Shown here: piece by piece, positions 9,666 to 63,971 of the stretch
How the letters are laid out: every line of letters begins with the position of its first letter
Position numbering within the stretch: position 1 is the stretch's first letter
Virus record (IMG/VR): IMGVR_UViG_3300022891_000002
Span: 86,361-150,360 of that record
Strand: one strand, 5' to 3'
DNA from: a virus
Length of the DNA: 64,000 nt
Made by a program: the position numbers and the translations under genes
Notes under the pieces: model-generated
What the model saw: only the letters and a program-made list of their open reading frames with translations
What the model was told of the DNA's origin: nothing
Database searches by the model: none

Positions 9666-9965
9666 TTAAGGTAATGAATATAAATCAGATAAAAGAGAAT
9701 CCAATCTTACTTTAGTGTCTTCTACCTGAAACTCTAAATATTTTCTAAACTTCTCTAGAAAGTTATCTACCTCTTCTTTCATTTTAGCTATTAAAGGTTC
9801 TTCTCCAATTTCCCAAGTAATGACTTTGTTGTAGTAATGGTGATTAGTCCACCAAATATACTTGTCAAACTTTTTATGATAGATAGTACCTACCCAATTT
9901 TCACTCTCAAATTTACTTTCACAAGTAGATAGATAGAATCCTTTATATAAAAAAGTCTTCCTCAT
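9666..9965 (-). CDS. HicB-like module protein
   Basis: FLYKGFYL...WVGTI...MKEEVDNFL pattern shared with the HicB at 63696. Confidence 0.5.
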   Translation of the reverse strand: MRKTFLYKGFYLSTCESKFESENWVGTIYHKKFDKYIWWTNHHYYNKVITWEIGEEPLIAKMKEEVDNFLEKFRKYLEFQVEDTKVRLDSLLSDLYSLP

Positions 9966-10387
9966 TAGTCCTCTCCTAAGTTACTATCATTCATCCAATT
10001 AAGACAACTAATAACTACATCCCCATGACACTTCTCATTCTCCTTACACCAACAAGCTAGTTTAAGAGGGTACTTATCTAGTTCTTGCTTAGACTTAACA
10101 TTTCTTAATAACTCATTAAGTTCTTCTTTAGCTTCTGTGTTGTTTTGTACTTGCTCCCACAACCACCTTCTATACTTCTCTACTACTTCTTCTCTTGTAC
10201 CATCTTTGTTAATATAAAATGGATTAGCTAATAGGCTTCCTAGTAATTCTGGATAACCTTTAGCTTTGATAGCTCTACCAATGTAAATAATATCTGGATA
10301 GTCTTTGGGTTCTAATGATAACTTAGTCAGATAACTTTTTACTGATGGTTTCTTTATACAGACTCTTTTTATGTCTAGTTTATTCAT
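9965..10387 (-). CDS. DUF4326 domain protein
   Basis: YIGR, GS.LANPF, REEVVEKY, LACWC..CHGDV. Confidence 0.9.
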   Translation of the reverse strand: MNKLDIKRVCIKKPSVKSYLTKLSLEPKDYPDIIYIGRAIKAKGYPELLGSLLANPFYINKDGTREEVVEKYRRWLWEQVQNNTEAKEELNELLRNVKSKQELDKYPLKLACWCKENEKCHGDVVISCLNWMNDSNLGED

Positions 10388-10718
10388 TTTACTATCTCCA
10401 TTTCACTACTTATCCATCTATTGCTAGCATTTACAACATTTCTATCCCTAAAGAAAAGAGTAAACGATTCAGCTTTCTCAAAATTATCAAATAAAAACTG
10501 TAAATCTTCTGTATCTCCTTGGTCTGGACGAATCTTAAGTCCATAATCTGAATATTCAAATCTCACACTAAAGAAGAACCCGTTAATATAGAAACCCATA
10601 CTAACTAAATCGCTATCTTTAGCTTTATTTCTTTCCATAGTTTCAATACCAGGAAAGCTTAGATGTAAATCTTTAGTATCTAGCCTTAAAGGATATTGCT
10701 TACCCCAGATAGTTATTT

Positions 10719-11069
10719 TCATAATCTACTAATTTGAATATTTAAAATAGTGTTTCTAGATTCAATTTTTTCTATTTTCTCTACTAACTCAGGTAAACTT
10801 TCTAATAGATTTTCTACTGAATATTGCTCACCATCTGTACAAGGATATTCTTCTCCAGATTCCCAAGATAAGTAGATAGAATATTTCATCTTTTCTACTT
10901 CTTCACGAAACTTCTTTGTTAATAACTCAAAACTATCTTCCCGTACACTAATACCTAATTCTCTACAAATACCCCAATACTTATTATTTGGTTGAGCATA
11001 ACATTCTAATTCATAACCTCTAAAAGTATAAATATTATCTGTCATAGTTAAGTCTCCTAAACACAACAA
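10719..11069 (-). CDS. HicB-like module protein (probable start at the internal MTDN)
   Basis: YTFRGYEL...YWGICRELG...SFELLTKKFREEVE; AGGAG precedes the internal ATG. Confidence 0.6.
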   Translation of the reverse strand: MLCLGDLTMTDNIYTFRGYELECYAQPNNKYWGICRELGISVREDSFELLTKKFREEVEKMKYSIYLSWESGEEYPCTDGEQYSVENLLESLPELVEKIEKIESRNTILNIQISRL

Positions 11070-11138
11070 AGAGAGCTAAGAAGAACTGCCTCCTTTCAGT
11101 CATCTTTCCAACTCTCTGCTACTTCTATTACCGGATTA

Positions 11139-12089
11139 TTATTCTTTACCAGTTAATTTAAGATAAAGATTATATTGAGCTTCTAATCTATCTACATAAC
11201 TTTCTAATGATTTCTTTAAATCTCCCCAACTATTTTCTACAAATGGAGTGGGATTATCAACTCCTCTAAGAATTCCTTTACAATATACTGGGTCATCCAT
11301 TAATTCCAGGACTATTTCTTTATAAATCCAAGTCTCTTTTTCTTTCTTCAACTCTTCTAATTGAGCAGATATTCTAGCTTGTAGTTGTTCTAACTCTTGA
11401 ATCTTCTCTTGTTTAGGAGTTAACATCTTTCTTTGTACTTTTTCTTTCTCTTTTACCACTCTTTCTATTCTGCTATCACAAAGCTGCTGTATTTCTCTTG
11501 TACTACTTGCAATACATTTAAAGATAGAATTCTTATGGAACTGAACACTCCCAAAGAAACTATTACTATTAGCTCTCTCTCCTTTAATTATTACTTTGTA
11601 ACCCTGATACTCATAATCTTTTTTAATTATTACTTTGTAACCCTGATACTCATAATCTTTCCAATCTACCCAATCAGTACAATACTCATCTACAAATCTC
11701 TGAAACTTTGAGACTACTTTATCGTAATGAATACTTTCAAAACTTTTATTGTATGGTTTAAATTCTCCTATTTCTCCTATATAAAAAACTTTCTTATCTC
11801 TAGCTCTTTCTCTAGCGGTAAGAAACATTCTTTCCCCTTTATAAGTAATTATACTGGTAGTACCTCTCCAAGCTCTTTTAATATCTTCATAAGTTAGGTC
11901 TTTCATATTCTTCTCCATTAGTTTATCTACATTAGACCTAAAATATTTTAGAATCTTCTCAATATCTGAGTTACCTGAATAATACTCTTGACCATTAACA
12001 GTGTAGTTAGCGGTATAATAGTTCTCTTTCTTCTTCGTAACTGTTATAAAATGATTTTTGTACTTAAAGACTTTACCGAACTCTCTCAT
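11139..12089 (-). CDS. Protein with four tandem HicB-like modules and a coiled coil
   Basis: FKYKNH..FRSNVD, TYKGE..FQRFVD, EYQGY..CDSRIE, IYKEI..LESYVD repeats. Confidence 0.6.
   Translation of the reverse strand: MREFGKVFKYKNHFITVTKKKENYYTANYTVNGQEYYSGNSDIEKILKYFRSNVDKLMEKNMKDLTYEDIKRAWRGTTSIITYKGERMFLTARERARDKKVFYIGEIGEFKPYNKSFESIHYDKVVSKFQRFVDEYCTDWVDWKDYEYQGYKVIIKKDYEYQGYKVIIKGERANSNSFFGSVQFHKNSIFKCIASSTREIQQLCDSRIERVVKEKEKVQRKMLTPKQEKIQELEQLQARISAQLEELKKEKETWIYKEIVLELMDDPVYCKGILRGVDNPTPFVENSWGDLKKSLESYVDRLEAQYNLYLKLTGKE
11583..11660. repeat. Perfect 39-bp tandem duplication, in frame
   Basis: tttaattattactttgtaaccctgatactcataatcttt occurs twice; encodes KDYEYQGYKVIIK twice. Confidence 0.95.
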
Positions 12090-12091
12090 AG

Positions 12092-12856
12092 CTACATCTC
12101 ACTAGACAACTTCAATATCTGCTCAATAGAACTTCTATACTCCTCTTTCATAGGTAAATCCTCATTTACCTTTAACCTTCTCCTAGTAGTCAAGACTTCT
12201 TCTTTAGTTAACGGGTTATAACCAGTCTTCTCATAAGTTTCCCAATAGATTCCAGTACCTCTTCTCTGCCAAGTAGGAACCTCATTGAAATTAATCCCAT
12301 TCTCAAATAGAAGTTCATTCTTAAACTCTCTAGTCTTCTCATCTAATATATTTGTAGCTTTTCTAGCTGAATGACCTGAACTTCTTAAAGTCCAGTAGCT
12401 ATAACCATTTAACGCACATCTTGTAGCATCAGCTTGTCTCCATAAGAAATAGTCAACTACTTGAGATTTATTAACTAAAGAAATAAGTCTACTATCAAAA
12501 CTAATTATTGAACCAGATAGATTAGTAAAAGTAGAACTAGCAATACTAGCAGAGATAGACACTAACTTCTCTACACTTCTATTAAATAAATCCCAATCTG
12601 TAGGAAATAAAATAGATATCTCATCACTTTCTGTGTAACCGTAAATTCCACCTAACTCAGTAACTAATGCTTTAGTAGTCTCAACCATCCAAGAGTGAAA
12701 CGTTAAATCAAAAGGTTTATCAAATTTAGAGTTGTAGGTAAAATTAGAAAATGAACGTCCATCTACTCTAATTACTGTATAAGTCTCAGGAAGTAATTTA
12801 AGATTGTGGAAATACTCTAATGAACGCATTTTAGCTTCAAAAACATCATTATTCAT
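12092..12856 (-). CDS. tRNA(His) guanylyltransferase Thg1-like protein (3'-5' polymerase)
   Basis: VIRVDGRSFS, KPFD, YTESDEIS, FDSR, YFLWRQAD, WQRRG. Confidence 0.95.
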   Translation of the reverse strand: MNNDVFEAKMRSLEYFHNLKLLPETYTVIRVDGRSFSNFTYNSKFDKPFDLTFHSWMVETTKALVTELGGIYGYTESDEISILFPTDWDLFNRSVEKLVSISASIASSTFTNLSGSIISFDSRLISLVNKSQVVDYFLWRQADATRCALNGYSYWTLRSSGHSARKATNILDEKTREFKNELLFENGINFNEVPTWQRRGTGIYWETYEKTGYNPLTKEEVLTTRRRLKVNEDLPMKEEYRSSIEQILKLSSEM

Positions 12857-13402
12857 TTAGCTCTCCTTTTTATACAACAAATCTCTCAACTCACTAAAAT
12901 AAGGAACTAACGCTTCTATTCCTTCTCTTACAACTACCTTAATAACTTCAGCTTGACAGAAAGGAAAATAACCTGCAAAGGGGTCTTCAAAATCATCAAA
13001 ATCTTTAGCATAAACTAATTTCTGAGGATTTTCTTTTAAGTGTTTATACCACAACATTACGTAATACTGAATTCCATAATCGTCTATTACAAAACTATTA
13101 CCTTGTTCGTTAGACTTAACTGGTAGATTTAACTTTCCTATTTGCCAACTTACCTGTCTTATTCTCAGTTTTTCACAACTTTTAACATCTCTCCAACTAG
13201 AAGGGGCATCACAAGTATCAAATCTCTTTGCACATTGATAATGGTTCTCGATTGAATCTTTCTTGCCAAACGCAGTTACATAACAAAAGAAGGGACTGAA
13301 CTCTTTATTTCCTTTAGAGTGACATTGAAGAATCCTCTTACCCTCTTCAACTCTAAATTCACCTTCAAATACTTTCTTGTACATATTAATTCTCTCTAGC
13401 AA
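12857..13402 (-). CDS. NADAR-like protein
   Basis: CHSKG..EFSPF and SIENHYQCAKRF resemble the NADAR EHYxQAxKF motif. Confidence 0.5.
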   Translation of the reverse strand: MLERINMYKKVFEGEFRVEEGKRILQCHSKGNKEFSPFFCYVTAFGKKDSIENHYQCAKRFDTCDAPSSWRDVKSCEKLRIRQVSWQIGKLNLPVKSNEQGNSFVIDDYGIQYYVMLWYKHLKENPQKLVYAKDFDDFEDPFAGYFPFCQAEVIKVVVREGIEALVPYFSELRDLLYKKES

Positions 13403-13805
13403 AATGGTCGTAATATACTAACTCATCTTCTTCATTTAGAAAACCGTAAACACAATACTCCTCATTAAAATCAGAGGTACTTGTAACTTCTCTTATTTCA
13501 CTTAAATTACCAGGAACAAAAGGATAGAAACTTCCCCATTTCTTGTGATAAAACTTTCTACTATAAATTGGTCGAGTATTAGTCGTATCACTAAGTATTC
13601 GTTCTGGCCTATTAAAAGTTATATCGTCGTTCTCATTAATGACATAGCCAACAGCAACTTTTATAGGTCGGTAAACTCCAAACTCAATATTGTCTTTATA
13701 AACTGGTCTAAGTATCTCTTTTCTTGACGGAACTCTTTCTACTACTGGTTCTTCTGATTCTGGTTCACTTTTAGTTCCAAAGAAATAGCCACGAAACATT
13801 CCCAT
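13386..13805 (-). CDS. Phage paralog family B (also 19873-20166 and the C-terminus of 22591-23226)
   Basis: Shared VG(Y/I)(L/V)..N....F and G(F/Y)(L/I)N...EL.YY motifs. Confidence 0.6.
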   Translation of the reverse strand: MGMFRGYFFGTKSEPESEEPVVERVPSRKEILRPVYKDNIEFGVYRPIKVAVGYVINENDDITFNRPERILSDTTNTRPIYSRKFYHKKWGSFYPFVPGNLSEIREVTSTSDFNEEYCVYGFLNEEDELVYYDHFAREN

Positions 13806-13820: not shown

Positions 13821-13985
13821 CTAACTACCAATCAAATCATTTACTTGTTCCCGAAAACTCTTCTCTAATCCATCCTTACTCTTACTAGATATATAAATTC
13901 CTAACTTTTCACATTCTCCATCATATTGTTCAGACATTGAGTTATAAGTAATAACTAATTCGTACCCTTTATAGCTGTAATACAT
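13821..13985 (-). CDS. 54-aa stand-alone HicB-like module (absent from ORF track)
   Basis: Hand translation MYYSYKGYELVITYNSMSEQYDGECEKLGIYISSKSKDGLEKSFREQVNDLIGS. Confidence 0.7.
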   Translation of the reverse strand: MYYSYKGYELVITYNSMSEQYDGECEKLGIYISSKSKDGLEKSFREQVNDLIGS

Positions 13986-14165: not shown

Positions 14166-14705
14166 CTAATATAAATAAAATACAGGATTCATTAAATTAT
14201 AGTTTTCGTAATCTGTACCTAATATATCTAACAACTTTTGAGGTACTTCATCTCCAAATAAACTCCTAGACGTAAAACAAGACTTCTCATCTCTACTAAA
14301 GAAATACTCTAAACCTTTATTCAAAATCATTTTCTCGCAGAAATAATACCAGTTAAGAGAATATATCTCAATTAGGAAACGTAGAAGCTCGTTAATTTTG
14401 TATTTACTGATATTAAGTTCATTTAACTGAATAGACTCAACAATCTCTTTACTGTTAGATAAACAAACTACAGCAGGATAAATATAAGAAGAATCTAATT
14501 TGTACAACTTATACTCAATAGCAGTAGATAAATAATTAGGGATAGATTTATAAGTTTGCTGGTTTCTATTAGCTAACCAATGATTGCTCTTTAAATCTAC
14601 TAAATATTCAGTTCCATTTTCAGACCGAACATTTGGTGAGGTAATACTGATAGCAGGTAAACCAAACCTACCTTCTTTAGTGTCAAATATAGTGTCTTGA
14701 TTCAT
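14166..14705 (-). CDS. Hypothetical protein, paralog of the C-terminal part of 15629-16339
   Basis: Shared GTEY.VD, TAIE.KL.KL, SRDEKS.F, VPQKLLDIL.TD, NP.FYLY. Confidence 0.75.
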   Translation of the reverse strand: MNQDTIFDTKEGRFGLPAISITSPNVRSENGTEYLVDLKSNHWLANRNQQTYKSIPNYLSTAIEYKLYKLDSSYIYPAVVCLSNSKEIVESIQLNELNISKYKINELLRFLIEIYSLNWYYFCEKMILNKGLEYFFSRDEKSCFTSRSLFGDEVPQKLLDILGTDYENYNLMNPVFYLY

Positions 14706-14988: not shown

Positions 14989-15297
14989 TCATTTGATTCT
15001 CCCTCGATATTGATTATGTAACCTATCCAACACTTCAATAACTTCCGGTAAAGCTTCTGGATAATAACGAAGCATAGAGTTGAACAAATCTTGAGCTAGT
15101 ATCTCTTGACCATATTGAATCTGTTCTTTTTCTTTTATAGCATTATCAACTAATTTTTTAAAATCTTTCTTTAGATAATCTGTGTCTGAACTCGTATCTT
15201 CATACCCTAATTCTTCACATTTTCCACTGTAATAATAGCCATGAAATTCTACAACTAGAAGGTAGCCTTTATATAAGAAATTATTATTCTCTTCCAT
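14989..15297 (-). CDS. HicB-like module protein
   Basis: FLYKGYLL...YSGKCEELG...LKKDFKKLVD. Confidence 0.65.
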   Translation of the reverse strand: MEENNNFLYKGYLLVVEFHGYYYSGKCEELGYEDTSSDTDYLKKDFKKLVDNAIKEKEQIQYGQEILAQDLFNSMLRYYPEALPEVIEVLDRLHNQYRGRIK

Positions 15298-15628: not shown

Positions 15629-16339
15629 TTAATACAAGTAGAATAGTGGATTAGCACACATATAATTACCAAAATCTGTATCTAAAATATCTAGTAACTT
15701 TTGTGGCACCACATCTTCCTCTCTAGCACAATACGTGTCCCCAAATAAATCCTCTGTTTCAAATTTAGATTTCTCATCTCTACTAAGTAGATAGGCTAAC
15801 CCTTTAGTATTTATTATTGCTATACAAAAATCAATCCACATTTCAGGATTAATTTCCAGCAGTTGACGTAACACTTTATTTACTACTTCTCTCGTTGCTT
15901 TTAGTTCTGACTGTTGGATAGATTCAATTATCTTAGTGTCAAAAGTAGTATAAGAAGAAATACTGTACGCACCTAACTTAAACAATTTACTCTCTATAGC
16001 AGTAGCTAAATGCTTTGGTACATCTTTATTACAATTACGTCCCCACTGTAACCAATAACGACTTTCTACATCTACTACATACTCTGTTCCCTTAATACTC
16101 ACAACAGGTAAACTAAGAAACTTTTTATGAGTATCAAATATATCTGCTCCTAATTCTTCTATTCTTTCGTCTACTAATTGTTCAAATTTCTTTTTTAGGT
16201 TAGATACGGTATCTGTAGTGAAATTATACTTGTACTGGTCTACTTTTACTAACTCAACAATTTCCCCTACTAGACAATTTCTATCTAAATCAGTTGTTAT
16301 TTTAAGAGTAAAACCTTCGTATCTTAGTGTATCAGTCAT
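15629..16339 (-). CDS. HicB-like module fused to a domain paralogous to 14166-14705
   Basis: LRYEGFTL...LVGEI...DTVSNLKKKFEQLVD, then the shared C-terminal domain. Confidence 0.7.
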   Translation of the reverse strand: MTDTLRYEGFTLKITTDLDRNCLVGEIVELVKVDQYKYNFTTDTVSNLKKKFEQLVDERIEELGADIFDTHKKFLSLPVVSIKGTEYVVDVESRYWLQWGRNCNKDVPKHLATAIESKLFKLGAYSISSYTTFDTKIIESIQQSELKATREVVNKVLRQLLEINPEMWIDFCIAIINTKGLAYLLSRDEKSKFETEDLFGDTYCAREEDVVPQKLLDILDTDFGNYMCANPLFYLY

Positions 16340-16430: not shown

Positions 16431-16487
16431 GTTGCTACTTTTTAAATAATTTGTGATATACTATAAAGGTACACGAATTTACCGCAA
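16431..16487 (+). promoter_or_regulatory. Extended -10 promoter bracketed by partial copies of arms A and B
   Basis: TGaTATACT at 16454-16462; GTTGCTACTTTTT at 16431; TTACCGCA ending at 16486. Confidence 0.55.
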
Positions 16488-16491
16488 CTCA

Positions 16492-18279
16492 ATGATTATT
16501 ATCGACGCACCTCCTAATTCCCGTTATTGTTCAGAATTTATGACTGAACTGCCTAAAGGGATAATTGACAAACATGAAACTGGTGTAGGAGCATCAGTAT
16601 TAGCTCTTGAAGACCAAAATCCGTACATCTTAGCAGTTCCTACTATTGAGATTATCAGAAACAAAGTAGAGCAATATCCTAACTATAGAAGAGAAGAAAA
16701 GATATTTGGTTTTTATGGTGGAGTTAAAGAAAGAGATTTACTTTTCTATGCGAACTCTACTAAAATCCCAAAGATAATGGTTACTTATGATAGTTTTGAT
16801 AGAGTTTCTAAATTGCTATCTAGTGATAAAGATAAATATAGAGTTCTAGTAGATGAGTTCTCTGACTTATTAGATGCTTACTCTTATAGAGATGCAGCAA
16901 TTGACAGGTTACTTAATGCGGTTAAAGATTTTGATTATGTAACTTATATCTCGGCTACTCCTATTAAGTCTGAATACTACCCAGAATGTTTGAAGGGATT
17001 GGATGAGTATCAGATTAACTGGGGAGAATATACAAAAGTCAAAGTAGAAAGGAAGAAGACTAATAAACCTTACCAGTTAGCTTGTAATATTATTGAGGCG
17101 TATAAAGCTGCTGGGGATGAAGGTATTAAAATGCCTAACGGTCAGTATAGTAAGTCCGCTTATTTCTTTGTTAACTCCGTAAATTCAATTCTAAATATAA
17201 TAGAAGCTGCGGATTTACGTCCTAGTGAAGTTCGAGTTATTTGTGCTAATAACAAAGTTAACCAAAGCAAGATGGACTTATTTCAAATAGAAAAAGCACT
17301 TGACCCAGAGAAGAAATTCAACTTTATAACTTCTACGGCTTTTAAAGGATGTGACTTCTACTCCGAAACTGGAGTTATCTATGTAGTTAGCAATACTCAG
17401 AATAAGAACACTTTAATTTCTATTGACACTGATATCAGACAAATAGCTGGTAGAATTAGAACTCTTAGTAATCCTTTTAGGAAGGAAATTTATCATCTTT
17501 ACAATACTGACTCTAGCTTATTATCTCAGGAAGAGTTTGACGAATTAATTAAAACCAAGGTAGAGCAAACTACTAATCTACTATCTCTCTACCACAAAGG
17601 TAATGAATCTGAGCAGAAAGCTTTCTTAATAGATTGGGAGAGTAATACTAAATATGGTTACTCAGATGATAACTATATTAGTAAAAGTATTGATGGTGAA
17701 CTCTACTTCAATCACTATATGATGCTCAATGATAAGAGAAGATGGGAAATATCTAGTAACGTCTACAGAGATGGATTAAGTGTTAGAGAAGCTTATGTAG
17801 AAGCCGGATTTGAATTAGTAGCTAATGACCAGGACTTCGTTAACGTTCAAAATGAAAACAGTTTTATTCATAGACTAAGTAGTAAGTCTTTCAAATCTAA
17901 TTGTTTGAGCTATATTGATAATGAAAACGAGAGGGTCTACTTAGGAGATAGATTCCCTCTCATCAAAGAAAGTTATGAACAACTAGGAGCTGAGAGAATG
18001 AAAGCTGTCAACTATCTACCGGACAGACTTAAGAACGAGCTTAAGTTTAAGAACGTAGATATTCAACAGTGTATCAAATCTGAGCTAAGAAGACTACTAG
18101 CTGTAGGAGAGGTTTACACACTATCTCACCTAAAGACTGTAATTAACGATGTCTATACACGACTACACTTAAGCAAAAAAGGTAAAGCTAGTGATGTTAC
18201 CCAGTATTGCTCTACTAGAACTAAGAGTATTCGGATAGATGGAAAGACAGTTAAAGTAATGGAGATTTTAGAAGAATAA
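16492..18279 (+). CDS. SF2 helicase-like protein, origin-binding/replication initiator type (paralog 2)
   Basis: DKHETGVGAS, VLVDEFS, SAT, YFFVNS, QIAGRIR, C-terminal GKASDV; colinear with 3878-5557. ATG at 16492 preferred because the GTG at 16453 overlaps the -10 box. Confidence 0.75.
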   Translation: MIIIDAPPNSRYCSEFMTELPKGIIDKHETGVGASVLALEDQNPYILAVPTIEIIRNKVEQYPNYRREEKIFGFYGGVKERDLLFYANSTKIPKIMVTYDSFDRVSKLLSSDKDKYRVLVDEFSDLLDAYSYRDAAIDRLLNAVKDFDYVTYISATPIKSEYYPECLKGLDEYQINWGEYTKVKVERKKTNKPYQLACNIIEAYKAAGDEGIKMPNGQYSKSAYFFVNSVNSILNIIEAADLRPSEVRVICANNKVNQSKMDLFQIEKALDPEKKFNFITSTAFKGCDFYSETGVIYVVSNTQNKNTLISIDTDIRQIAGRIRTLSNPFRKEIYHLYNTDSSLLSQEEFDELIKTKVEQTTNLLSLYHKGNESEQKAFLIDWESNTKYGYSDDNYISKSIDGELYFNHYMMLNDKRRWEISSNVYRDGLSVREAYVEAGFELVANDQDFVNVQNENSFIHRLSSKSFKSNCLSYIDNENERVYLGDRFPLIKESYEQLGAERMKAVNYLPDRLKNELKFKNVDIQQCIKSELRRLLAVGEVYTLSHLKTVINDVYTRLHLSKKGKASDVTQYCSTRTKSIRIDGKTVKVMEILEE

Positions 18280-18444: not shown

Positions 18445-18822
18445 TTAAATCTTATATCCTGAGAAGAAATGTCCTTTTACTTCATCAGGACTGCTTAGAT
18501 AAAATGCGTTTTTGTAGAGATTATAGATATTATTAATTTTCATATCTATGGTAACTGCATCATAATCATTAGCATCTATCTCTTCTCTTAGTATTTCTAG
18601 CTGTCTTTCATATTGAACCATTAATGGATTGTTTATAAGCTTAAAGTGTTTTCTATTTTCTCTCCTTATGTCTAGATGTTTCTTGAATTGACTTTGTAAT
18701 CTTTCTACAGAAGTATCTTTCTTGAAGAAATAGACGTTTGAACAAATACCATAAACAAATCCATTTGCTTCAGTTACAGTCATAAAGATATCGTCATCTT
18801 CGATTAGAGATTCAACTGTCAT
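18445..18822 (-). CDS. HicB-like module plus C-terminal helical module
   Basis: FVYGIC...TSVERLQSQFKKHLD; C-terminus resembles that of 18941-19309. Confidence 0.5.
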   Translation of the reverse strand: MTVESLIEDDDIFMTVTEANGFVYGICSNVYFFKKDTSVERLQSQFKKHLDIRRENRKHFKLINNPLMVQYERQLEILREEIDANDYDAVTIDMKINNIYNLYKNAFYLSSPDEVKGHFFSGYKI

Positions 18823-18940: not shown

Positions 18941-19309
18941 TTATTCTTTCTTACTGGTTGATTCAAAATACTCTCGTCTAATATCTGCTTCACTTAAATC
19001 TAATAAATCACCGAATAACTCATGAATACTTTTAAGTTCTTGTGCCGTTCTACTAGCAGAAAAAGTAACAGAATCAAAAGATAAAGCTCTTAAATACGAG
19101 TAATATGTATGAAGTATTTTATCTTTGTAGGTTATTCTAGAATCTACTTCTTTCTTAAACTTGTTAAAAAGATTGTCTACATTAGTACCTTTAAAGACAT
19201 AAGTAGGTGAAAATTCTGGACAAGTGCTTTCATAATAAGTAATACCGTCATCTTCTGCTAATGTAGCTACTCTTAATAGATAGCCTTTGTACTTCAATTC
19301 GTCTGACAT
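18941..19309 (-). CDS. HicB-like module plus ELKxIHELFGD module
   Basis: LKYKGYLL...FKGTNVDNLFNKFKKEVD; C-terminus shared with 54746-55186. Confidence 0.7.
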   Translation of the reverse strand: MSDELKYKGYLLRVATLAEDDGITYYESTCPEFSPTYVFKGTNVDNLFNKFKKEVDSRITYKDKILHTYYSYLRALSFDSVTFSASRTAQELKSIHELFGDLLDLSEADIRREYFESTSKKE

Positions 19310-20633
19310 AATTTTGTTATCTGTTTTGATTTAGTTTGCTGAAATGTAGACGCACCCTATTATTTATCTACTCCTCAACTACTTTCTCATAAACCTTTAC
19401 TACTTTAACTTCTTCTCTACAAGTCAATAAATAACAAGTTTCGGTAATATCAGGTTTCCAATCTCCAGTATCATATTTACCTCCTCCAAAGTAATAAGTA
19501 AATCCTATAAAGTAATCAGATAGACCAGTTATAGGAATAGCTAATTCTTTACTTGGATATTCGTAATCGTCGTCTCTAGTACCTGTTTCTGCTCCTATAT
19601 CCACTAGGTCAGACTTCATATCCGAGATAGTGTCAGATAGAAATCCAGTATCATATATTTCGTGATATAGGTTTTCACAGAATTCCTCATCAAAGTCAAT
19701 ACTTATTATTTTCTGGATGTCTACTTCTAGAGATTTGATATCTTCTTCTAAGTTAGTATGGAATCTAATATAATCTTTATATCTATCTCTTCTTTTTATT
19801 TCTTCCCAGACTTTAAGTAGAATCTCTCTGTACAAATAGGAGGTAGCTTTCTTCATTATTCTTTCTCCTTAGTTATAGATACTGGTCATAAAATACAATA
19901 TCATCATTAAGGTCAATATAACCAATAGAACAGTTTAATCCATCAACAATAGTAGTAATCTCTTTAACTTCTTTAACTTCGGATAACCAACGATAACTAC
20001 ATTCACCATAATCCCCATTAGTATAGAAACAGATATCGTAGAGATTTACATGAGTCACTCTATTTTTAAGAGGTTTGTGGAATATTACTTCGTTGTTAGA
20101 GTTCAATATTCCAACTTCTACGAATTTATCAGTACCATCCGGGGACTTAAATACTTTTTCGGTCATTCTTTCTCTCCAATACCTTCTTCTTTCTTAACTC
20201 GTCAGAGACTCGTTCCGAGAAACTTGAAACCTAATAACAACTGTAAAAGCTCGTTAGCAGATTCAGGAGTATTCTTTAGTATTTTTTGAACTAGGAAGAT
20301 ACAGGGTTCTACAGTCCTCTTCTCTTCTACTCCTTGGACAAATCTATCTTCTATTTGTTGAACATAAATAGAATCTGCATAATCTTTAATTTCTGGTTGA
20401 TTGAGTATTTCTGCTATTGAGTTAAGTGATTCTTGTAACTGTTCTTCGTTAGTCATTTCTTTCTATTTACTATTTCTTTTCTAGCTTCAGTAGCAATTAT
20501 TTTTACAGAAACCCACTTATCTATTAAAGTGTCATCTCCGTAGTGTCCCAATGCTTCTAAGATAGAAACAGCATCCTTTTCGTCTATCTCTTTAAGAAAC
20601 TTTTTACCTATCATTTCTTCTATACTCATTTAT

Positions 20634-20855
20634 TTAATCCCGAAATGCTAAAGCTTCATTCCTAACTTCTTCCTCATATTCTCTATCTACAACTTTTATA
20701 AACTCATCTATAGCAGGTGAGTAGCTACCATAATATCCACAAAAATTAAAACATAGATTTTTACAAGTACCTTTGATGAAAGATATCCCGTTAAGCTTTG
20801 GATGAATTTCTACTTCTAATTTGTAACCTAAATACTCAACAATTAGCTTTTTCAT
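20634..20855 (-). CDS. HicB-like module protein
   Basis: VEYLGYKLEV...IKGTC...AIDEFIKVVDREY. Confidence 0.55.
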   Translation of the reverse strand: MKKLIVEYLGYKLEVEIHPKLNGISFIKGTCKNLCFNFCGYYGSYSPAIDEFIKVVDREYEEEVRNEALAFRD

Positions 20856-21024: not shown

Positions 21025-21261
21025 TTATCTACTCATCCAAAATAAATAACTGTTACTTTCACTTTCTCTTCGGTCATCTTCTTTCTTCCATAATCGGATA
21101 TATTCATTAACTAATCTTCTAAATTCAGGTATTACATAGTCATATCCTTTTGAAGTATTAACTGCGTAACAGATTTTATCACAGTTAGCTACTATACGAG
21201 TTCCTGCTTCTTGATGTACCTCTTCTAGTTCTAAGATGTAGTTTTTATATTCTAGTTTCAT
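21025..21261 (-). CDS. HicB-like module protein
   Basis: LEYKNYILEL...VIPEFRRLVNEYI. Confidence 0.55.
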   Translation of the reverse strand: MKLEYKNYILELEEVHQEAGTRIVANCDKICYAVNTSKGYDYVIPEFRRLVNEYIRLWKKEDDRRESESNSYLFWMSR

Positions 21262-21434: not shown

Positions 21435-21917
21435 TTAATACTCATCATCTATTTCTCCTATCATTTTATTAAGATAAATTACTTCCTTCTTCCATTTTTC
21501 TACTTCAGCTTGTAGTTGTATATTTTCTTCTGCTAACTGATTTTGATATTTATAGTTAATCTGGTTATCTACTTGTCTTTCTAATTCTGTTAGTAGATGA
21601 GTAAGGGAATCGGATTCCAATCCTATAACATCTATTTCGTCATTAAGCAATATATCCCCTACTAAAGTATTTCTCTCTGCGTCTAACCAAACTTTGAACT
21701 TGTAATCTCTATAATCAACCCAAAGAATATGGTTTTCTATTTCAGATAACAGCTTTTCTTCTTTTTTAATAGAAAGTAGTAAGTCAGCAACTAATTCTTG
21801 GATTGTTTCTATTACAGGATACTCATTACAAACCCTATCCCAACCATCATCATTAGTAATAGACTTGAAGTTTTTAACAATACTGCGATAACGTTGCATT
21901 TGCTTTTTACTATTCAT
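21435..21917 (-). CDS. Helical N-terminal module plus HicB-like module
   Basis: DYRDYKFKVWLDAERNTLVGDIL...DVIGLESDSLTHLLTELERQVD. Confidence 0.65.
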   Translation of the reverse strand: MNSKKQMQRYRSIVKNFKSITNDDGWDRVCNEYPVIETIQELVADLLLSIKKEEKLLSEIENHILWVDYRDYKFKVWLDAERNTLVGDILLNDEIDVIGLESDSLTHLLTELERQVDNQINYKYQNQLAEENIQLQAEVEKWKKEVIYLNKMIGEIDDEY

Positions 21918-23357
21918 TTCCTTCTCCGGATAAATCTAAATCATCTAATCTAACGAACTCTGAATTATCTTGTTTTGCCACTTCTACAGATACTTCAAAT
22001 GCTTCATGGTCAGGTAAATTTAATTCTTGAGTTGCAAAGTCGTAAGATGCTAAGTCAAACTCTGTTAAGTTAAGATTATTTGGGTCAGTCATAATTTTTC
22101 TCATCTTCTATTAATAGAAAATATTTAGAGCATAGTCATACTTATCTAACTCAATCTTTGTTTCTATGAATTGAGATAAATAATCTACTTGTTCTTGAGT
22201 AGTTATTTCTGCTCCATCTTCACCAAATATTAATCCTACTTCTTTTAGTTTTTTCTCGGTTATAGAGTTAGGTAATGCTTCTTCTCCTAATCTATCTTGA
22301 TAGTCTTCTTCTTCACTAATTTTGTTATACCAATTTAAGACTATTTCTTTAGTAAATTTCTCACTAAATGTATATTTATTCTCTTCTTCTTTTTGCTCAA
22401 TATAATCAAGCATTTGTTGAGCGATTCTATCTAGTTTCCTTATCGCTGTTCCACATTCAGGATGAAATGATAATCCTTTACCATCAATATAGTCTCTAAT
22501 TTCTTCTAACTGTTCACTAAATTCTTGATAAGTCATTGTTTTTCTCCCTATTAGAGAGCTTAGTTACTTTACTCTCATATAAACTACTAATTACTCTTTG
22601 TTAGCTATTTGGTTGTAGTAAATAAGTTCACCATCATCATTCAAATAACCTATTACTGAATAAGGGACTTTAGGAGAACTACTATAAGTAGAAGGAGAAT
22701 ATTGAATGGTGTTTTGACTAATTACCTCATTAATCTCTTTAGTATCTTTACCGTTATGAGAGTTAGTGATTGGTACATACTCCTCACAACTTCTGTATCC
22801 TCTAACCATGAAACCTGGAAGATATCTAACTAATGTATCTGGCTTTTCTCCTAAGAGGAGGTCTGCCGACTCTACAAATTCTGTATCTGGTTCGTTTTCA
22901 GAACGAGTCTCAGACGAGTTAAATACCATGTTGTCATTTAAATCTAAGTAACCTACTTGAACTAAAGCATTTTTAGTAGAAGAGCTATCTTTGTAGTAGC
23001 AAGAAGTTACATACTTGTATACTCCTCTTGTTTTCATTAGGATTTCTTTTTCCATTTTCTTTTCCTCAGTTTTGTTCAAAATAGATACAAGTCCTTCCTT
23101 CTCTTCTTGTTCTTTAATATGACTCAACATTTCTTTTGCTAGTTTCCAAAGTCCTTCTATATTACAATGGCTACTCCAATCTTCTTCTTGCCTTAGTATC
23201 TCACGTTCAAAATGTTTATAAGTCATTTGTTCTCTCCTTTAGTTAACAAGCCTATCGTAATAAATCACTTCTACTATTCCTGCTTTATGCTCTACATAAC
23301 CAATAACTCCTTTTCTTACCTGAAGTAATTGCTTAGATATATCTGGCATGGTTTCTC

Positions 23358-30564: not shown

Positions 30565-32715
30565 TTATTTCTCATTCCAATTTTTACAAGTTAGTTTGTT
30601 AGGGTCAAAACATACATCTACCGGAATTGACTTAATCCAGTATCTCAATTCAGTATGTAAACAATTCATTACTGCACTATTAATCTCAAATGAATATTCA
30701 GATAAACCAATCCAGTTAAGTTCATCGTGGCAGTTATTACAAAATCTAGCTTTCCAATGAGGATTATTAAAGAACTCTATCTCTGCTTTACCTTGAGCAA
30801 ATTTAAGAATATCTGCTTCTCCACAGAGCCAAATTAGAGAAATAGAATCTGTATAAGGAACTTCATAAGTAGTATAGGTTTTACCTGTTTTAGTTGTAAA
30901 AGTCTTCTCTTGCTTTTTTAAATGTACCGTTCTATTAGTAAAAGTCTTACATTTACCGTAATGCCCTGAAGTAGGTTGACCATTAGCATTAAAGAAAGGG
31001 AATTCTATATTATACTTGTTACACTCTTTAACATAGTTTTGGATAAATTCGTAGAGTACATTATAAGTTTTTCTATAAGCTTGCTGAATTAATTTACATT
31101 GTTCTTCACTTACTTCTACCCCATTCTTTCTAAAGCTTGTTTGTATAGTTTTAGCTCCTGCCTGATTGAGACCTGAGTAATTAGCTTCCTTCCCGAACTT
31201 CCTGTACTTAGATATTAGTGGGTCAGGATTATCTTGTTTATATAAAGTTACTGCTTCGTCATACCCAAAATTGTGACCATCATAAATAGCAATAGAGTTA
31301 CCCATAATAATATGAGCATCTTTACCATTACCATAAATCTCTAATAATGTGGGGTCTTTAGATAATTCAGTACAGATTCTATAGTGACTCTGACTTAAAT
31401 CCATAATTCCCAAAAAATAACCTTCTGGGGCTTTAAAGAATGTTCTAAAGTCAGGTAATCCTTCTTCTTTAAAAAAACTTGGTGTTTTAGCTGGGTTCTG
31501 AAGTTGAGCGCCAATGTTAATAGCTTTCTTACTTCCCTTAGAATTTTTGTATTTTAAAGTACCATTACAACTTGACCTACCTGAACCTGAAGGAGTCATT
31601 TGTCTATAATTAGTACGAACAGAATAGAAGTCTTCCTCAGGATTCTTCCAAGCTACATCTCTTATACCTTCTGCATATTGAATAAGAACGTTCAAAGTCC
31701 TCATCCTTAGTAGAGCTTTAGCTTCTGGATACTTAACTCTTTTTAGTGCTTCTACGTCTAATGACTGTAATTTAAGCTCCGGCCATTTCTCATTAAAAGC
31801 TTGTCTTAGTAACTCTACTTGTCCCCAATTTACATCTGGAAAACTAACTGTGATAATCTCTTTATATTCTTCTAACTTTTTCCTATACTCAAAAACATTC
31901 TTTTCTAATAAATCCTTATCAATAGGAAAACCAAATACTTCCATTTCAATAAAAGCAGGAAGTACAAGAGATTCTGCCATTACGGAGTAATATAAGTCTT
32001 CTCTTATAACTAACTCCTGAATATATGGAAATAATTGTAGAGGTAAGATTGAGTCATTTCCTGAATAATTATACTTAGCATTTGAAATTCTCCATCCCCA
32101 ATCTTCTTTCTGTTCACTCTTATCTATTTCAAATTTAGTGTTGAAAAGAATGTTTACTCGTTCAGTAATAGCTTTAAGAGAGTGAGATAATAAACATCTA
32201 TCTTCTCTATTTTTAGATTTATTACCAGGGATTACTTCTACTCCTGCCCAAATTACTTGCGAACATAACATTAAATCTCTACAGCACAGTATTTTAATAC
32301 CTAAATGGTAGAGTAGAAAGTTACCATCAAACTTTAGATTAACCCCTACTACCGGGACTTTTAGATTCTCACATCTCTCTTTAAATACTTGGTAGAATCT
32401 ACTAGCAAAAAACTCTTTCTTCTTTTCATCTATATTATCTAAGTTTCCACCTAAATCATATATTAGTGCATAATATTGACCATCTACCTTGATTCCTACT
32501 GAGATAAGTCTTATTAACCCAAACTTAAAATATAATGCGCTATATTCTTCGTCACCATGAGTTTCTAAGTCAGTAGAGAATATCTTAGCAACTGAGAACT
32601 TATCTACCCATTCATTCCATACTTTATCTTCTACTTTGCCATGAACAATTATATTTGGCTCAAGAGGAACATCTTTTGCTAGTATATCTGACCACTTTAA
32701 CTGTAGAGTTTTCAT
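30565..32715 (-). CDS. polA: Family A DNA polymerase with 3'-5' exonuclease
   Basis: Exo DLET, NLKFD, YSGND; SGRSS, LQNP; motif A DLSQSHYR, motif B RKFGKEANY, motif C HDEL. Confidence 0.95.
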   Translation of the reverse strand: MKTLQLKWSDILAKDVPLEPNIIVHGKVEDKVWNEWVDKFSVAKIFSTDLETHGDEEYSALYFKFGLIRLISVGIKVDGQYYALIYDLGGNLDNIDEKKKEFFASRFYQVFKERCENLKVPVVGVNLKFDGNFLLYHLGIKILCCRDLMLCSQVIWAGVEVIPGNKSKNREDRCLLSHSLKAITERVNILFNTKFEIDKSEQKEDWGWRISNAKYNYSGNDSILPLQLFPYIQELVIREDLYYSVMAESLVLPAFIEMEVFGFPIDKDLLEKNVFEYRKKLEEYKEIITVSFPDVNWGQVELLRQAFNEKWPELKLQSLDVEALKRVKYPEAKALLRMRTLNVLIQYAEGIRDVAWKNPEEDFYSVRTNYRQMTPSGSGRSSCNGTLKYKNSKGSKKAINIGAQLQNPAKTPSFFKEEGLPDFRTFFKAPEGYFLGIMDLSQSHYRICTELSKDPTLLEIYGNGKDAHIIMGNSIAIYDGHNFGYDEAVTLYKQDNPDPLISKYRKFGKEANYSGLNQAGAKTIQTSFRKNGVEVSEEQCKLIQQAYRKTYNVLYEFIQNYVKECNKYNIEFPFFNANGQPTSGHYGKCKTFTNRTVHLKKQEKTFTTKTGKTYTTYEVPYTDSISLIWLCGEADILKFAQGKAEIEFFNNPHWKARFCNNCHDELNWIGLSEYSFEINSAVMNCLHTELRYWIKSIPVDVCFDPNKLTCKNWNEK

Positions 32716-32989
32716 ATGTATACCTATCTACTGTTTTCCAGAAATCTTTTGCATAAGAATAAGGAGACTCACCTACTACAAATATGTCCATACTTTCTCC
32801 GTTTAAATAGATACACCCTGAGTAAGGAGCATCGCAATCATCACCATACTGACTCTCTACTTTACAGACAAATCCCGCGTAATGTAAATCTTGGTTACAA
32901 AAATCTCTTTGCCATCTTATTAGCTCATCTATACCTACTAAGTTACTTAAATACTCTCGAATATCTTTGTGTTCTAAATTATTACTCAT
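32660..32989 (-). CDS. HicB-like module protein
   Basis: LHYAGFVCKV...YSGCI...GESPYSYAKDFWKTVDRY. Confidence 0.55.
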   Translation of the reverse strand: MSNNLEHKDIREYLSNLVGIDELIRWQRDFCNQDLHYAGFVCKVESQYGDDCDAPYSGCIYLNGESMDIFVVGESPYSYAKDFWKTVDRYTYENSTVKVVRYTSKRCSS

Positions 32990-54177: not shown

Positions 54178-56058
54178 GTGGCTGTTTTGTTTTCAGCTTA
54201 ACATGATTATTCTTCTTCTATCTCTTCAAGGACATCTAACAGCCAGTCAGGATTATCATTTTCAAACCGTTCTAAATAAACCCTCATGATATCTTCGTAA
54301 CTGTCATAACCATCATAATCATCTCTAGAAATTCCTATCTGTCTAGCAATCTTCCAAAAAGCATCGTATATCTTATAAAAACAACGCTCTCTGTAATCTG
54401 TATCATCTTCCTGTGTATCTGCTTGTTGGTTAGCAGCATTTAGTAGCTTATGTAATTTCTCTAACTCCTTCTTTGTAGATTGAACTTCTTCAGATTTAAG
54501 AGTCATTGATTTTCTCCTAAGTAAATACGTAAAGAACTAGAACTAACTAATCTACAATAATAAACGCTATTCTCGAAGATGAACTATTTTGTCATTTGTA
54601 AAAATACATTCTACATCTTGCTCTGTAATAATCCTGATTTGAGTATCCGAGAACTTTTGAAGTTTAGTAACAATATTTTCCTCTTCACAGTACGGAAGAA
54701 AAACAACTTTATCACCAATGCACAAATCTCCTACCCTTTTTTGTCCTAGGTAACTCTTTTTTTACCCATCTTCCTTTCAAAGTAAAAAGTTTTCACTTCT
54801 CCCAATGTAAGCCCAAGAACATCTCCAAATAATTCATGAATATTTTTAAGTTCTCTATTTAGATAAGAAGGTAAATCTAACACATGAATATTAGGTTCAC
54901 TCTCTAGTAGGCTGTCTAAATATGGATATAGGGCTGAACAATCTACCTGTTGAGTCGTCATAGTTTCTTCCTCTTTCTTGTTGTTACATATATAAGTAAC
55001 TTCTGCGTCACCTAAATAAATTAAAGGTTTTTCAGTTTCTTCTGTAAAAATTACAAATAACAGATATCTACTATATGCTTCATCTTCCTTCGTTTCGATA
55101 CTAGAAATAGTGCTAATCCCTTTACTTCCAGCGAATATTACTACATCTCCAACTTCTAACTCATCTACTCTCTTAGTATCTGTCATGGTTTTCTTCCTTT
55201 TAGTTTGGTTAATAGAGGTTAGTTACTTCCCTCTAAAATGGATTACTTACAGTATCTCTCTCTTTCTTTTTGTTGTACTATTTTCACAAGGTCAAGTAAT
55301 TCTTCTAAAGTTTCTTTATCAGTGACAGAAACTCGTAACTCAGTATTGTCATCTTGTAAGTAATGAACCCTATCAACTACTTTATCTTGAAAATTAATAC
55401 AACCTCCTTTGTAAAAAAGCTCATAATCAACGTAATCCCCTATATTAGGAATACATTGAGTCTTCCCTTTAAACTTAGGGTCTAAATAAGAAAGATGAAA
55501 GCCAACTTCAATGAAATAGATATCGTACTTCATGGTTTCTCCTAGATAAGTAGTAATTTAACGTCGTTGCGGACAGAAAGTTTATTAGAATTTAGAGTAG
55601 AGTTCTTTTTTCCAATTCTTTCTACTAACAGCGTTTTCCCAAGCTTCTTCTTCTGTATCTCCAAAACCTATAAGCTCATACATATCCACGTAATTAAAAT
55701 CTCTTGTAATCCCCTCAATACCCTCGTGTGTTGAATTTAAGTGGGCAATCTCATCCATATCTGATTTACAGATAACATAGTCATATATACCTGTGTGACC
55801 TGTTCTACATTCATATCCTTCTTTTTTCAAGCTAAGAATTGTGGCTTCTACTTCTGGTTTTTTAACCTCTCTTTTTAACTGCCTGACTTTATTTTCTAAT
55901 TGATTCATAGTTTCTCTAGCTTCTTTAACAGCCTTATATTCAGGAGTTTTCATTAGAAAATTCTGTAAAGAATGAAATATACGTTCTGCATCACGCAAAT
56001 CATCTTCAGCTTTATCTAAAGGACTAAGTGAATCTTTATAGTCAGTCATAACTTTCTC

Positions 56059-61694: not shown

Positions 61695-61703
61695 TAGAAA
61701 GTA

Positions 61704-62273: not shown

Positions 62274-62646
62274 GTATTTCTTTTAAAAAGTTAGCAAATT
62301 CTTCTTGACTTTCTTTTCTCTTTTTAATGTAATCTGAGAAGTATAACTCTACTTCTGATTGAGATATTTCAATAGCAGTGTCCTCATCTTTAGGCATAGT
62401 TACTTTAAAAATTTTATAGTCTAAGTCTAAGTAGAAATCGGGAGTATTTAGTAGAAAATTAACTAAAGCTAAAATACTAGAGTCTTCTACTAAAGCAAAT
62501 AGATAAGTCAAAGGTTCACTATCTACTGCTAGACCTAAGTAGATTTGTTCTTTCTGATTCTTACAAGAAAAGAACTGAGGAGTATCATAGAAGTCGTAAA
62601 CCTCAATATACTCCAGAGTTCCTAATATAGTGTTTTCAGGTAGCAT
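62251..62646 (-). CDS. DUF6575-like protein
   Basis: LGTLE..EVYDFYD.P..FSC.N....YL. Confidence 0.55.
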   Translation of the reverse strand: MLPENTILGTLEYIEVYDFYDTPQFFSCKNQKEQIYLGLAVDSEPLTYLFALVEDSSILALVNFLLNTPDFYLDLDYKIFKVTMPKDEDTAIEISQSEVELYFSDYIKKRKESQEEFANFLKEIHGEPNND

Positions 62647-63184
62647 TAAAAAGCAGTCTCAACTAAACGATAGTTATTAGATATGAGTAGAACTACTAAC
62701 TTTTTAGTACATTCTCTGCACAGCTCAATAGTTTTATGTCCAGTAGGTAACTTAATCTCTCCGTAAAAAGGAGAACCATTCCACTTATTATCTAGAATTC
62801 TTTCTCTGCGTTTATCACATTCAGTATATTCTTCTACAATTTCTACTTTCTTAGTTACTTGAACTTCCATTATCAGTTACCTCTTTATAGCCAAACACAT
62901 AGTAGCCCCAACCATTAGAAGAGTTACATCCACCTATTACACACTCAATCTTCACGGGTTTATTCAGAGCTGCTTTTAACACCTTTTCCCAGTAATCAAT
63001 ATCAGACTCCCCAGGTTCTTGTCTCATCTTGTAAGACCAATCAATCAACCTATCGCTGTAATTCCAGCTTAAGCTTTTTAAAACTTCAGAACTAGAATTT
63101 GCTCCATAAACAATTTCTTCTTTACCGTTTTGAAATCTGGGATTGGAGTAGTGAATGAAAGGTAAGTTAGTCATTATAGTTCTC

Positions 63185-63694
63185 CTAAGCTTGTAGTTGT
63201 TCTAATGCCTTCTTTACAGATTCCCTTAATTCAACTTCTGTTACATCAAACTCAAGGTCAAACAATTCACTTTCCTCATCACAGTAAGCATCTACATCTC
63301 CAAATAACTTATCTAAAACTTTGAACTCCTTATCTGAACTAAACTTCTTTTCCTCTTTAAACTTTTCTAGAAAACTCTCTCCAAACTTATCCACTGAAAT
63401 TCTTTCTTCTAAAAACTCAGTAAGCAACTCTACATAAGACATAGCAAACTCCTTTTGACAACTAATGTACTTATAACCTAGTTCTAGATATCGTTGAGCA
63501 GTTGCAAACCCTCTACTGTTTCTAACTCCGGGTATTTGAAAATCAGGTTTTTTATGAGTAGCTTGAGCATAGCTAACCCAAGCAAGCTTATTCTCTGAGT
63601 TCGTCTGTAATACTTGTAGAAATAGATATCCGTCTGAACCGCGTTTCCATCTTAAAAGCTTGAGATTCTTATCGAAAGCAATTAACTTTTCCAT
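63185..63694 (-). CDS. Unknown N-terminal domain plus colicin-D-immunity-like domain (internal start at 63442)
   Basis: Y..LL..FL...IS.D.F...FL..FK.E...LD.LF.DVDAY...E.ELR..V..AL; AAGGAG 6 nt before the internal ATG. Confidence 0.7.
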   Translation of the reverse strand: MEKLIAFDKNLKLLRWKRGSDGYLFLQVLQTNSENKLAWVSYAQATHKKPDFQIPGVRNSRGFATAQRYLELGYKYISCQKEFAMSYVELLTEFLEERISVDKFGESFLEKFKEEKKFSSDKEFKVLDKLFGDVDAYCDEESELFDLEFDVTEVELRESVKKALEQLQA

Positions 63695-63695
63695 T

Positions 63696-63971
63696 TTAGT
63701 TAGGCTCTTTATTCAATTCTTGACAAAACTCCAGATAGTCCTCAACAGATTTAGCAAATTCTATCTTGGCTTGTCTAACGGTGTCAGCTTTGAAAGTAAC
63801 TACATCTTGAATGTAAAGAACTCTACCATAAATAGAATCCGTCTCTACATCTACTTCCATTGCTCCGGAGTAGTTTTTGTACTTAATAGTTTGAGTAGTA
63901 ATTCTTTCTGCATGACCTGAGTTAGTTACTTGAGATAATAAAGCTTCATCTTTTAGATAACTATTTACCAT
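63696..63971 (-). CDS. hicB: HicB antitoxin N-terminal domain, truncated before the DNA-binding domain
   Basis: KYKNYSG..EVD..TD..YGRVL.IQDVVTF.ADTV.....EF..SVEDYLEFC.ELNKEP. Confidence 0.9.
   Translation of the reverse strand: MVNSYLKDEALLSQVTNSGHAERITTQTIKYKNYSGAMEVDVETDSIYGRVLYIQDVVTFKADTVRQAKIEFAKSVEDYLEFCQELNKEPN

Follow-up and report, generated by a model that had tools for sequence, protein, structure and literature searches.

Why would a phage genome hold one small domain, resembling part of an antitoxin, in copy after copy? The question is raised by the window, the 64,000-nucleotide stretch analysed here, which forms the last 64 kb of the 150,360-bp virus record IMGVR_UViG_3300022891_000002 (positions 86,361 to 150,360). 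Its GC content is about 32% and its genes lie nearly all on the minus strand. A module of about 55 residues is repeated in its proteins and the recurrence of the motif is far beyond chance. The module resembles the N-terminal domain of HicB, which is the toxin-binding domain of this antitoxin. Among type II toxin-antitoxin families, HicAB is one of those least understood. A literature search found no description of such an expansion of the HicB domain. Genes are named below by their first window position (Table 1).

Copies of the module

All-against-all comparison with phmmer connected 10719, 13821, 13993, 14989 and 18941 at E-values of 1e-7 to 5e-4. An iterative search with a hidden Markov model (HMM) over the open reading frames (ORFs) of the window (n = 214) converged at nine mutually significant core copies, which were 10719, 11139 (residues 77-141), 13821, 13993, 14989, 15629, 18941, 20634 and 21025. 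Inclusion E-values against the 214 ORFs were 4e-5 for 21025, 7e-5 for 15629, 7.6e-5 for 20634 and 4e-4 for the segment of 11139. In the alignment of the nine core copies, A1, the copies were 20-38% identical to the reference copy and F and V were the only near-invariant positions. The A1 profile obtained 95 matches at E ≤ 1e-3 among 1.84 billion representative proteins, 91 of them external to this genome. Many of the 95 held 2-6 matched stretches each.

A deeper family HMM was made from 144 domains of database relatives of A1. It recognised 63696 (E 1e-8, 30.3 bits), residues 64-125 of 21435 (E 5.6e-7, 24.7 bits), a stretch outside the window at G000 73776-74000 (-) (E 2.4e-4, 16.3 bits) and 18445 (E 3.4e-4, 15.8 bits). 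Lower scores were obtained for 9666 (E 0.005, 12.0 bits), repeat 1 of 11139 (E 0.012, 10.9 bits) and 32660 (E 0.34, 6.2 bits), and neither 34675 nor 34928 was matched. In 20 shuffles of the ORF set of the genome, scores of at least 12 bits occurred 0.05 times, at least 10 bits 0.15 times and at least 6 bits about 1.1 times per genome. The reversed ORF set reached a maximum of 7.5 bits with the family HMM. Doubtful copies were also compared by hhalign with A3, an alignment of 29 rows comprising phage and canonical sequences, and their ranking was nearly identical to that by the family HMM. E-values were 4e-5 for 21435 (probability 70%), 5e-4 for the copy outside the window, 8e-4 for 18445 and 1.7e-3 for 9666, which aligned at full length and in register. 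For 32660, the E-value was 0.007 to 0.011, again in register. The matches of 34675 (E 0.12) and 34928 (E 0.15) spanned only the first 10-19 residues, a short YK-x-YE start.

A chance or compositional resemblance, with no real family behind it, would be conceivable in an AT-rich genome whose proteins are rich in Lys, Glu and Tyr. The shortness of the module, its two near-invariant positions and the blindness of Pfam and NCBIfam to it fit this explanation. It is nevertheless extremely improbable: pairwise phmmer E-values between copies went down to 1e-7, shuffled and reversed controls stayed below 13.3 bits compared with 40-59 bits for the core copies, 91 relatives lie outside this genome, and a confident predicted fold is repeated four times in one protein. 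Chance resemblance was refuted for 15 copies and remains the default for 34675 and 34928.

By these comparisons, 15 copies in 12 window genes are well supported, namely the nine core copies, repeats 1, 3 and 4 of 11139, and 21435, 18445 and 63696. A sixteenth is the copy at G000 73776-74000 (-), 12.4 kb upstream of the window. Judged by its profile scores, 9666 is probably a further copy; 32660 is a possible one that is statistically non-significant. The preliminary description had counted about 19 copies in about 16 genes. The recurrence of the motif and the mutual homology of the supported copies by profile both held, and the core copies were mutually significant far above shuffled controls. 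The total shrinks to the 15 copies plus the probable 9666; 32660 lacks significance, and 34675 and 34928 were rejected as family members because their similarity is confined to the short start. These two overlapping genes (window 34675-35188, -) are weak paralogues of each other, with 27% identity over 59 residues and the common pattern 'YK-x-YEI ... W-x-DE'.

The 316-residue product of 11139 aligned along its length with seven database relatives. For each of the four repeats, the column block of the orthologues was aligned by hhalign to the remaining eight core copies. Repeats 1 and 4 matched with probabilities of 95.6% (E 1.2e-8) and 95.1% (E 3e-8), and repeats 2 and 3 with 83% each (E 8.5e-6 and 8.9e-6). 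The AlphaFold2 (AF2) model from an 11-row alignment predicted four units, each with four strands and one helix, together with a long helix at residues 226-252, at a mean predicted local distance difference test (pLDDT) score of 73. The claim that this gene holds the module four times is borne out by both results. The predicted template-modelling score (pTM) was 0.32, so no fixed arrangement between the domains is predicted. No deposited phage was matched when the four-module protein was searched by tblastn. Within repeat 3, at window 11583-11660, 39 bp are perfectly duplicated in tandem (2.0 copies, 100% identical). The duplication inserts 13 residues in frame, maps to the low-confidence model loop 161-174 and is recent, since the orthologues lack it.

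Relationship to HicB and predicted fold

When all 16 proteins were scanned directly with Pfam and NCBIfam, the sole HicB-type match was a 12-residue edge of PF05534 on 63696. The family PHROG 9151, 'HicB-like antitoxin', matched 63696 (1e-18), 15629 (2e-5) and 18941 (0.008). The nine-copy profile reached proteins bearing PF05534 (HicB) at E 4e-5 to 1e-3 among 1.84e9 sequences. PF05534 was carried by 12 of the 91 external A1 matches and PF21748 (UPF0150-like) by two. Read from their sequences, P0072, P0073, P0090, P0104 and P0113 are typical HicB antitoxins with a ribbon-helix-helix (RHH) domain. No window copy matched PF21748 directly in Pfam; the relatives P0059 and P0045 alone did, and the match on the module region of P0059 had 37.8 bits, above the cut-off. 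The sequence link between PF21748 and the phage family is indirect and runs solely through P0059.

The copy closest to HicB is 63696. In tblastn it matched (E 4e-8) the hicA-adjacent HicB of phages mEp234 and HK106, and it also matched that of Burkholderia phage ST79. Its domain is 40-46% identical to bacterial HicBs and 34-46% across the phage and bacterial HicBs compared. At one locus of a matched bacterial HicB, the upstream ORF is a Pfam HicA (39 bits). In A3, phage and canonical HicB sequences stand in one register (Y-K-G-Y, G, F-x3-V-D-x-Y). On the sequence evidence, the module represents a divergent offshoot of the N-terminal domain found in 'YKGY'-type HicB antitoxins, without their DNA-binding part. 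The preliminary description of a diverged HicB-like module is supported by PHROG 9151, the A1 matches with PF05534, the family HMM and the matches to HicA-paired HicBs.

The N-terminal domain of 'YKGY' HicB (PF05534/COG4226) is homologous in register, whereas the phage family has no RHH or helix-turn-helix (HTH) domain, no hicA partner, at least 15 copies and rows of up to six modules, and its tails have nothing to do with DNA binding. At a position occupied by Ile or Val in canonical HicBs, the phage copies share a conserved Cys. In Pfam, no RHH or HTH DNA-binding domain was matched on any copy. The 63696 protein and 16 relatives stop directly after the linker '...EFCQELNKEP', which precedes the RHH domain in canonical proteins. 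The gene had been described as a canonical HicB; this was rejected, as its product lacks the RHH part. A search of the 150-kb genome for HicA (PF07927) gave nothing at E ≤ 1, with positive controls. Pfam found nothing on the N-terminal extensions of the relatives of 63696.

AF2 predicted the 18941 module with a pLDDT of 85, as strands at residues 2-7, 10-20, 23-30 and 37-41 followed by a helix at 44-61. Foldseek comparison of the model with the PDB gave no match at E ≤ 1e-3, and a search of the ESM Atlas for the module returned nothing. Residues 8-62 of the model were superposed on the HicB N-domains 6g1c (Z 4.4, root-mean-square deviation (rmsd) 2.1 Å, 49 residues) and 6g1n (Z 4.3, rmsd 2.0 Å, 50 residues). 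The TTHA1013-like proteins 1wv8 and 2yzt had Z scores of 4.3 and 4.5, and superposition with 1wv8, 2yzt and 6g1c gave 2.1-2.9 Å over 49-51 residues. The phage module departs from these UPF0150-like structures by one additional strand at the N-terminus and by the absence of the strand that follows their helix. Other folds had Z scores equal to or above those of HicB: MMOD 6.4, the AcrIF24 N-domain 6.0 and double-stranded RNA-binding domains (dsRBDs) about 5. With its four strands followed by a helix, the predicted fold is compatible with that of HicB without being diagnostic. A beta-beta-beta-alpha core, as proposed earlier, lies within the predicted fold of the supported copies in this weak sense of compatibility. 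PUR repeats gave Foldseek TM scores of 0.40-0.46 with rmsd 5.8-6.8 Å and were absent from the VIA lists; membership was provisionally rejected. In BFVD, the fold recurs in many small uncharacterised phage proteins (TM scores of at most 0.77), among them one with the annotation 'HicB family'.

The resemblance to dsRBDs raises the question of RNA binding. The beta-beta-beta-alpha core is common to these domains, and the copies might bind structured host or phage RNAs. The dsRBDs of Dicer, TRBP, Loquacious and RNase III matched at Z 4.5-5.6 and rmsd 2.0-2.6 Å, at least equal to HicB, and tandem arrays are typical of dsRBD proteins. This explanation is improbable, however. The Z scores are within the range of common arrangements, and no sequence link to dsRBD families was found in the Pfam scans or among the annotated A1 matches. 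Membership was rejected because the model begins with a strand and lacks the first, N-terminal helix that a dsRBD needs; the dsRBD matches span the beta-beta-beta-alpha part alone.

Candidate roles of the module proteins

The most likely role of the copies, proposed tentatively, is to bind HicA-type toxins or other defence proteins of the host stoichiometrically. This reading as decoys or inhibitors is suggested by the descent from a toxin-binding domain, the loss of both the regulatory half and the toxin, the early-type operon and the neighbouring genes. The module proteins would be made early, from one long leftward operon, and would neutralise host proteins by stoichiometric binding. HicA-type RNase toxins of host toxin-antitoxin defences would be the likeliest targets, and each paralogue could have its own specificity. 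Tandem proteins of four to six modules may act as multivalent sponges, and the variable C-terminal tails may provide a second contact or a localisation function. A more far-reaching proposal is that the HicA-binding domain forms a combinatorial library, in which single modules and rows of four to six would jointly neutralise HicA-type toxins, or others with a dsRBD fold, whose repertoire in the host is wide and changes fast; it is doubtful. If true, a broad-spectrum arsenal made from one antitoxin domain would be seen for the first time to counter toxin-antitoxin systems.

The logic has precedents. Phages acquire antitoxins or antitoxin mimics (PMC11594946, PMC11825919), and cyanophage antitoxins were proposed to block host dormancy (PMC6293099). 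Phage-borne DarG-like and NADAR-like antitoxins act against DarTG (PMC11825919, PMC13309987) by the same logic, with the neutralising half alone. They comprise one or two genes with a target that has been shown, whereas here a whole diversified family is present. In hicBA operons, HicBs that lack the DNA-binding domain are common, and HicB packs against HicA with its helix alpha1 (Gerdes 2024, PMC10865869). Such HicBs (PMC10865869) and the UPF0150/TTHA1013-like proteins (1wv8, 2yzt, 6g1c) are likewise stand-alone beta-beta-beta-alpha domains. Unlike the phage family, the hicBA and UPF0150 proteins are single-copy, with the toxin alongside in the hicBA operons. A phage-borne orphan antitoxin, or antitoxin mimic, of the same logic is Dmd of T4.

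Several points weigh against toxin binding. The conserved positions (Y-K-G-Y, G, F...VD) seem to serve the fold, and none marks a HicA interface. No Z score reaches the level needed to tell relatives from chance folds, and the N-domain of AcrIF24, which binds Cas7f, beats HicB as a structural match. PDB sequence searches with A1, A3, 63696 and the canonical relative P0113 gave no match, and no solved structure of a YKGY-type HicB was found in them; its HicA-binding mode we infer from UPF0150-type structures. To our knowledge, no antitoxin has four to six modules in a row together with coiled coils. A role of HicAB in phage defence is proposed only (PMC10865869, PMC11594946).

The AcrIF24 match bears on a different explanation, in which the fold is a repurposed scaffold outside toxin-antitoxin biology. 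The modules would then be small binders of other host proteins, such as CRISPR or defence complexes or enzymes, with targets that differ by paralogue. This is unlikely, if well short of negligible. The AcrIF24 N-domain (7dtr, 7elm) aligned with Z 5.8-6.0 over 60-61 residues; the best match (Z 6.0, 61 residues, rmsd 2.9 Å) is full length and includes the extra first strand. In a solved complex, this domain of a phage protein binds Cas7f subunits (PMC9001735); as with HicB, a DNA-binding domain comes after it. A similar fold can thus act against another kind of defence, which lends the general-binder explanation some likelihood. The wide occurrence of the fold in small phage proteins in BFVD, the strong divergence of the copies and the varied, mobile tails agree with it. 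On the other side, the AcrIF24 domain is 7% identical with Z below 8 and has no detected sequence relationship to the module; it is single-copy, with a bent helix and five strands. Sequence homology leads to HicB alone, with no annotated non-HicB family besides fusion partners, and the 63696 copy is still near HicA-paired HicBs.

A further explanation arises from domain X, which has about 170 residues and is encoded twice in the genome, once free (14166-14705, -) and once fused to a module (15629-16142, -). The modules could be cognate antitoxins that restrain toxic domains of the phage itself, for example X in cis (15629) or in trans (14166). The module-X fusion and a free X gene amid module genes form a Rosetta-stone pattern. 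A protein language model points weakly to clusters of AlwI/FokI cleavage domains for X, with a score of 0.90, which is reached by 4-10% of shuffled proteins. A homologue search for X found only the query itself and none outside this genome. As an account of the family this has little chance of being right. The domain occurs only twice and would account for two to five of more than 15 modules, no catalytic motif common to the two X copies was seen by eye, and the PF07927 search found no HicA in the genome. Moreover, the relative P0060 keeps the module with only the last 30 residues of X. For a few copies, the fusion and the free gene are hints of a phage-internal partner.

A phage lineage in which selection retains more than 15 diverged copies of the toxin-binding domain alone would point, as indirect evidence, to a part played by HicA-type toxins in infection, and would also provide a ready panel of natural inhibitors. 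If the targets are not HicA, the family would represent a novel scaffold for small binders among phage early proteins, including poly-domain forms without an antitoxin counterpart.

Related phages, gene inventory and genomic setting

Logan and JGI contigs were found to contain syntenic regions with HD_4, DUF4326, ThyX, an opposite-strand gene of about 600 residues and the four-module protein. Copy numbers in these relatives rest on 20-kb loci. L002 held seven module matches in 3 kb and L001 five in 2.7 kb. L010, part of a contig of 146.5 kb, held about 15 copies, counted partly by eye with three spot checks, including orthologues of 21435, 15629, 13993, 13821 and 11139 and a three-module protein. 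Up to six modules occurred per polypeptide in the relatives. Single paralogues have their own orthologues (P0031, P0035, P0044, P0068 and P0069), so the duplications are old and each line is kept.

Architectures shift between the relatives. In P0062 and P0098, the module is fused to a domain that is the separate gene 20202 here. P0060 holds the shortened X, and the tail of 14989 is attached to a different N-terminus in L010. The occurrence of the module alone, in tandem and fused to partners, as first described, was confirmed by the stand-alone genes, the four-module 11139 and the 15629 fusion. Through duplication, fusion and fission, the module has multiplied in one clade of uncultured cyanophage-like phages of 146 to 150 kb.

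A tail motif of 18941 (18941-19060, -) also ends the non-module protein 54746 (54746-54860, -), and mobile tails are also represented at 11142-11525 of L010. The 18941 motif, 'ELK-x-IHELFGD...YFE', is 56% identical over 27 residues between the module and the non-module protein. Such mobile short C-terminal tail motifs may be docking motifs.

Table 1. Genes with supported, probable or possible module copies and the free domain X, in window coordinates.
Position	Strand	Feature	Support and relatives
9666..9965	-	99-aa gene, probable module with 15-20-residue insertion	12 bits; hhalign E 0.0017
10719..11069	-	116-aa gene, module DNA 10872-11042 and C-terminal tail	core copy; orthologue P0069
11139..12089	-	316-aa gene, four modules and coiled coil at residues 205-250	core copy (repeat 2), hhalign, AF2
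11901-12074; 11667-11861; 11481-11666; 11166-11342		DNA of repeats 1; 2; 3; 4 of 11139	
13821..13985	-	54-aa stand-alone module	core copy; orthologues P0068, P0049
13993..14148	-	51-aa stand-alone module	core copy; orthologue P0035 on 146.5-kb contig
14166..14705	-	179-aa free domain X, partner domain, non-module, flanked by module genes	45% identical to X of 15629
14989..15297	-	102-aa gene, module DNA 15124-15291 and helical tail	core copy; orthologue P0044
15629..16339	-	236-aa gene, module DNA 16148-16339 fused to 170-residue domain X	core copy; PHROG 9151 E 2e-5
18445..18822	-	125-aa gene, module DNA 18649-18822 with degenerate first strand pair, and tail	family HMM, hhalign
18941..19309	-	122-aa gene, module DNA 19124-19309 and tail motif shared with 54746	core copy; AF2
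20634..20855	-	73-aa stand-alone module	core copy, E 7.6e-5
21025..21261	-	78-aa stand-alone module	core copy, E 4e-5; orthologue P0031
21435..21917	-	160-aa gene with N-terminal extension, module DNA 21546-21734 and coiled coil	E 5.6e-7 and 1.8e-4
32660..32989	-	109-aa gene upstream of PolA, possible module	6 bits; one homologue found
63696..64000	-	copy closest to HicB, module DNA 63699-63899, without RHH	PHROG 9151 E 1e-18; family HMM

The record is labelled linear and 49% complete. Its bases 11-136 are an exact repeat of window 63875-64000, an overlap of 126 bases from which just the 10 bases at the start of the record deviate. The gene at 63696 runs over the contig junction into a 145-residue product, P0001, and the same product is present in a public gene call on a contig of 150,365 bp. 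Since the contig ends overlap and this gene reads across the junction, the genome is probably complete and circularly permuted, with about 150.2 kb. Related contigs of 146.5 kb, which hold P0035 and P0060, and of 140.9 kb, which holds P0117, are consistent with the size of a complete genome. Megablast of the region against deposited phages gave no match. The portal-like protein had matches solely in Pseudanabaena phages (24-26% identity) and PolA was nearest to Nodularia phages (25% identity). Because of these resemblances, the record likely represents an uncultured phage of a cyanobacterial host.

The sole large plus-strand gene of the window (608 residues, 16453-18279, +) interrupts the minus-strand operon and has no Pfam match. 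An opposite-strand counterpart was present at the same place in L002 (597 residues) and L010 (595 residues).

Among the module genes are those for an HD_4 hydrolase (8898-9656), a DUF4326 protein (9965-10387) and a homologue of Thg1-like tRNA-His guanylyltransferase (12092-12856), all on the minus strand. The HD_4 and DUF4326 genes hold their place in L002 and L010. Directly downstream of 63696, a gene of 169 residues (63185-63694, -) encodes a colicin-type immunity domain (PF09204, E 9e-15), with no toxin alongside. In L003, a metagenome contig of 308 kb, a Colicin_immun gene lies 1.1 kb from a HicB-like gene. Enzymes of the HD_4, DUF4326, Thg1-like and immunity kinds can undo toxin damage, a role that these neighbours may have. 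PHROG scans of the neighbouring small genes gave families of unknown function alone. A second paralogous family was present at 19873-20166, 13386-13805 and 22591-23226, all on the minus strand, with a 'GY-x-D-x-ND-x-x-VFY' motif that is usually C-terminal. In L010, this motif recurred at 4027-4608, 6920-7213 and 12565-13098 and at the end of an HTH protein of 471 residues.

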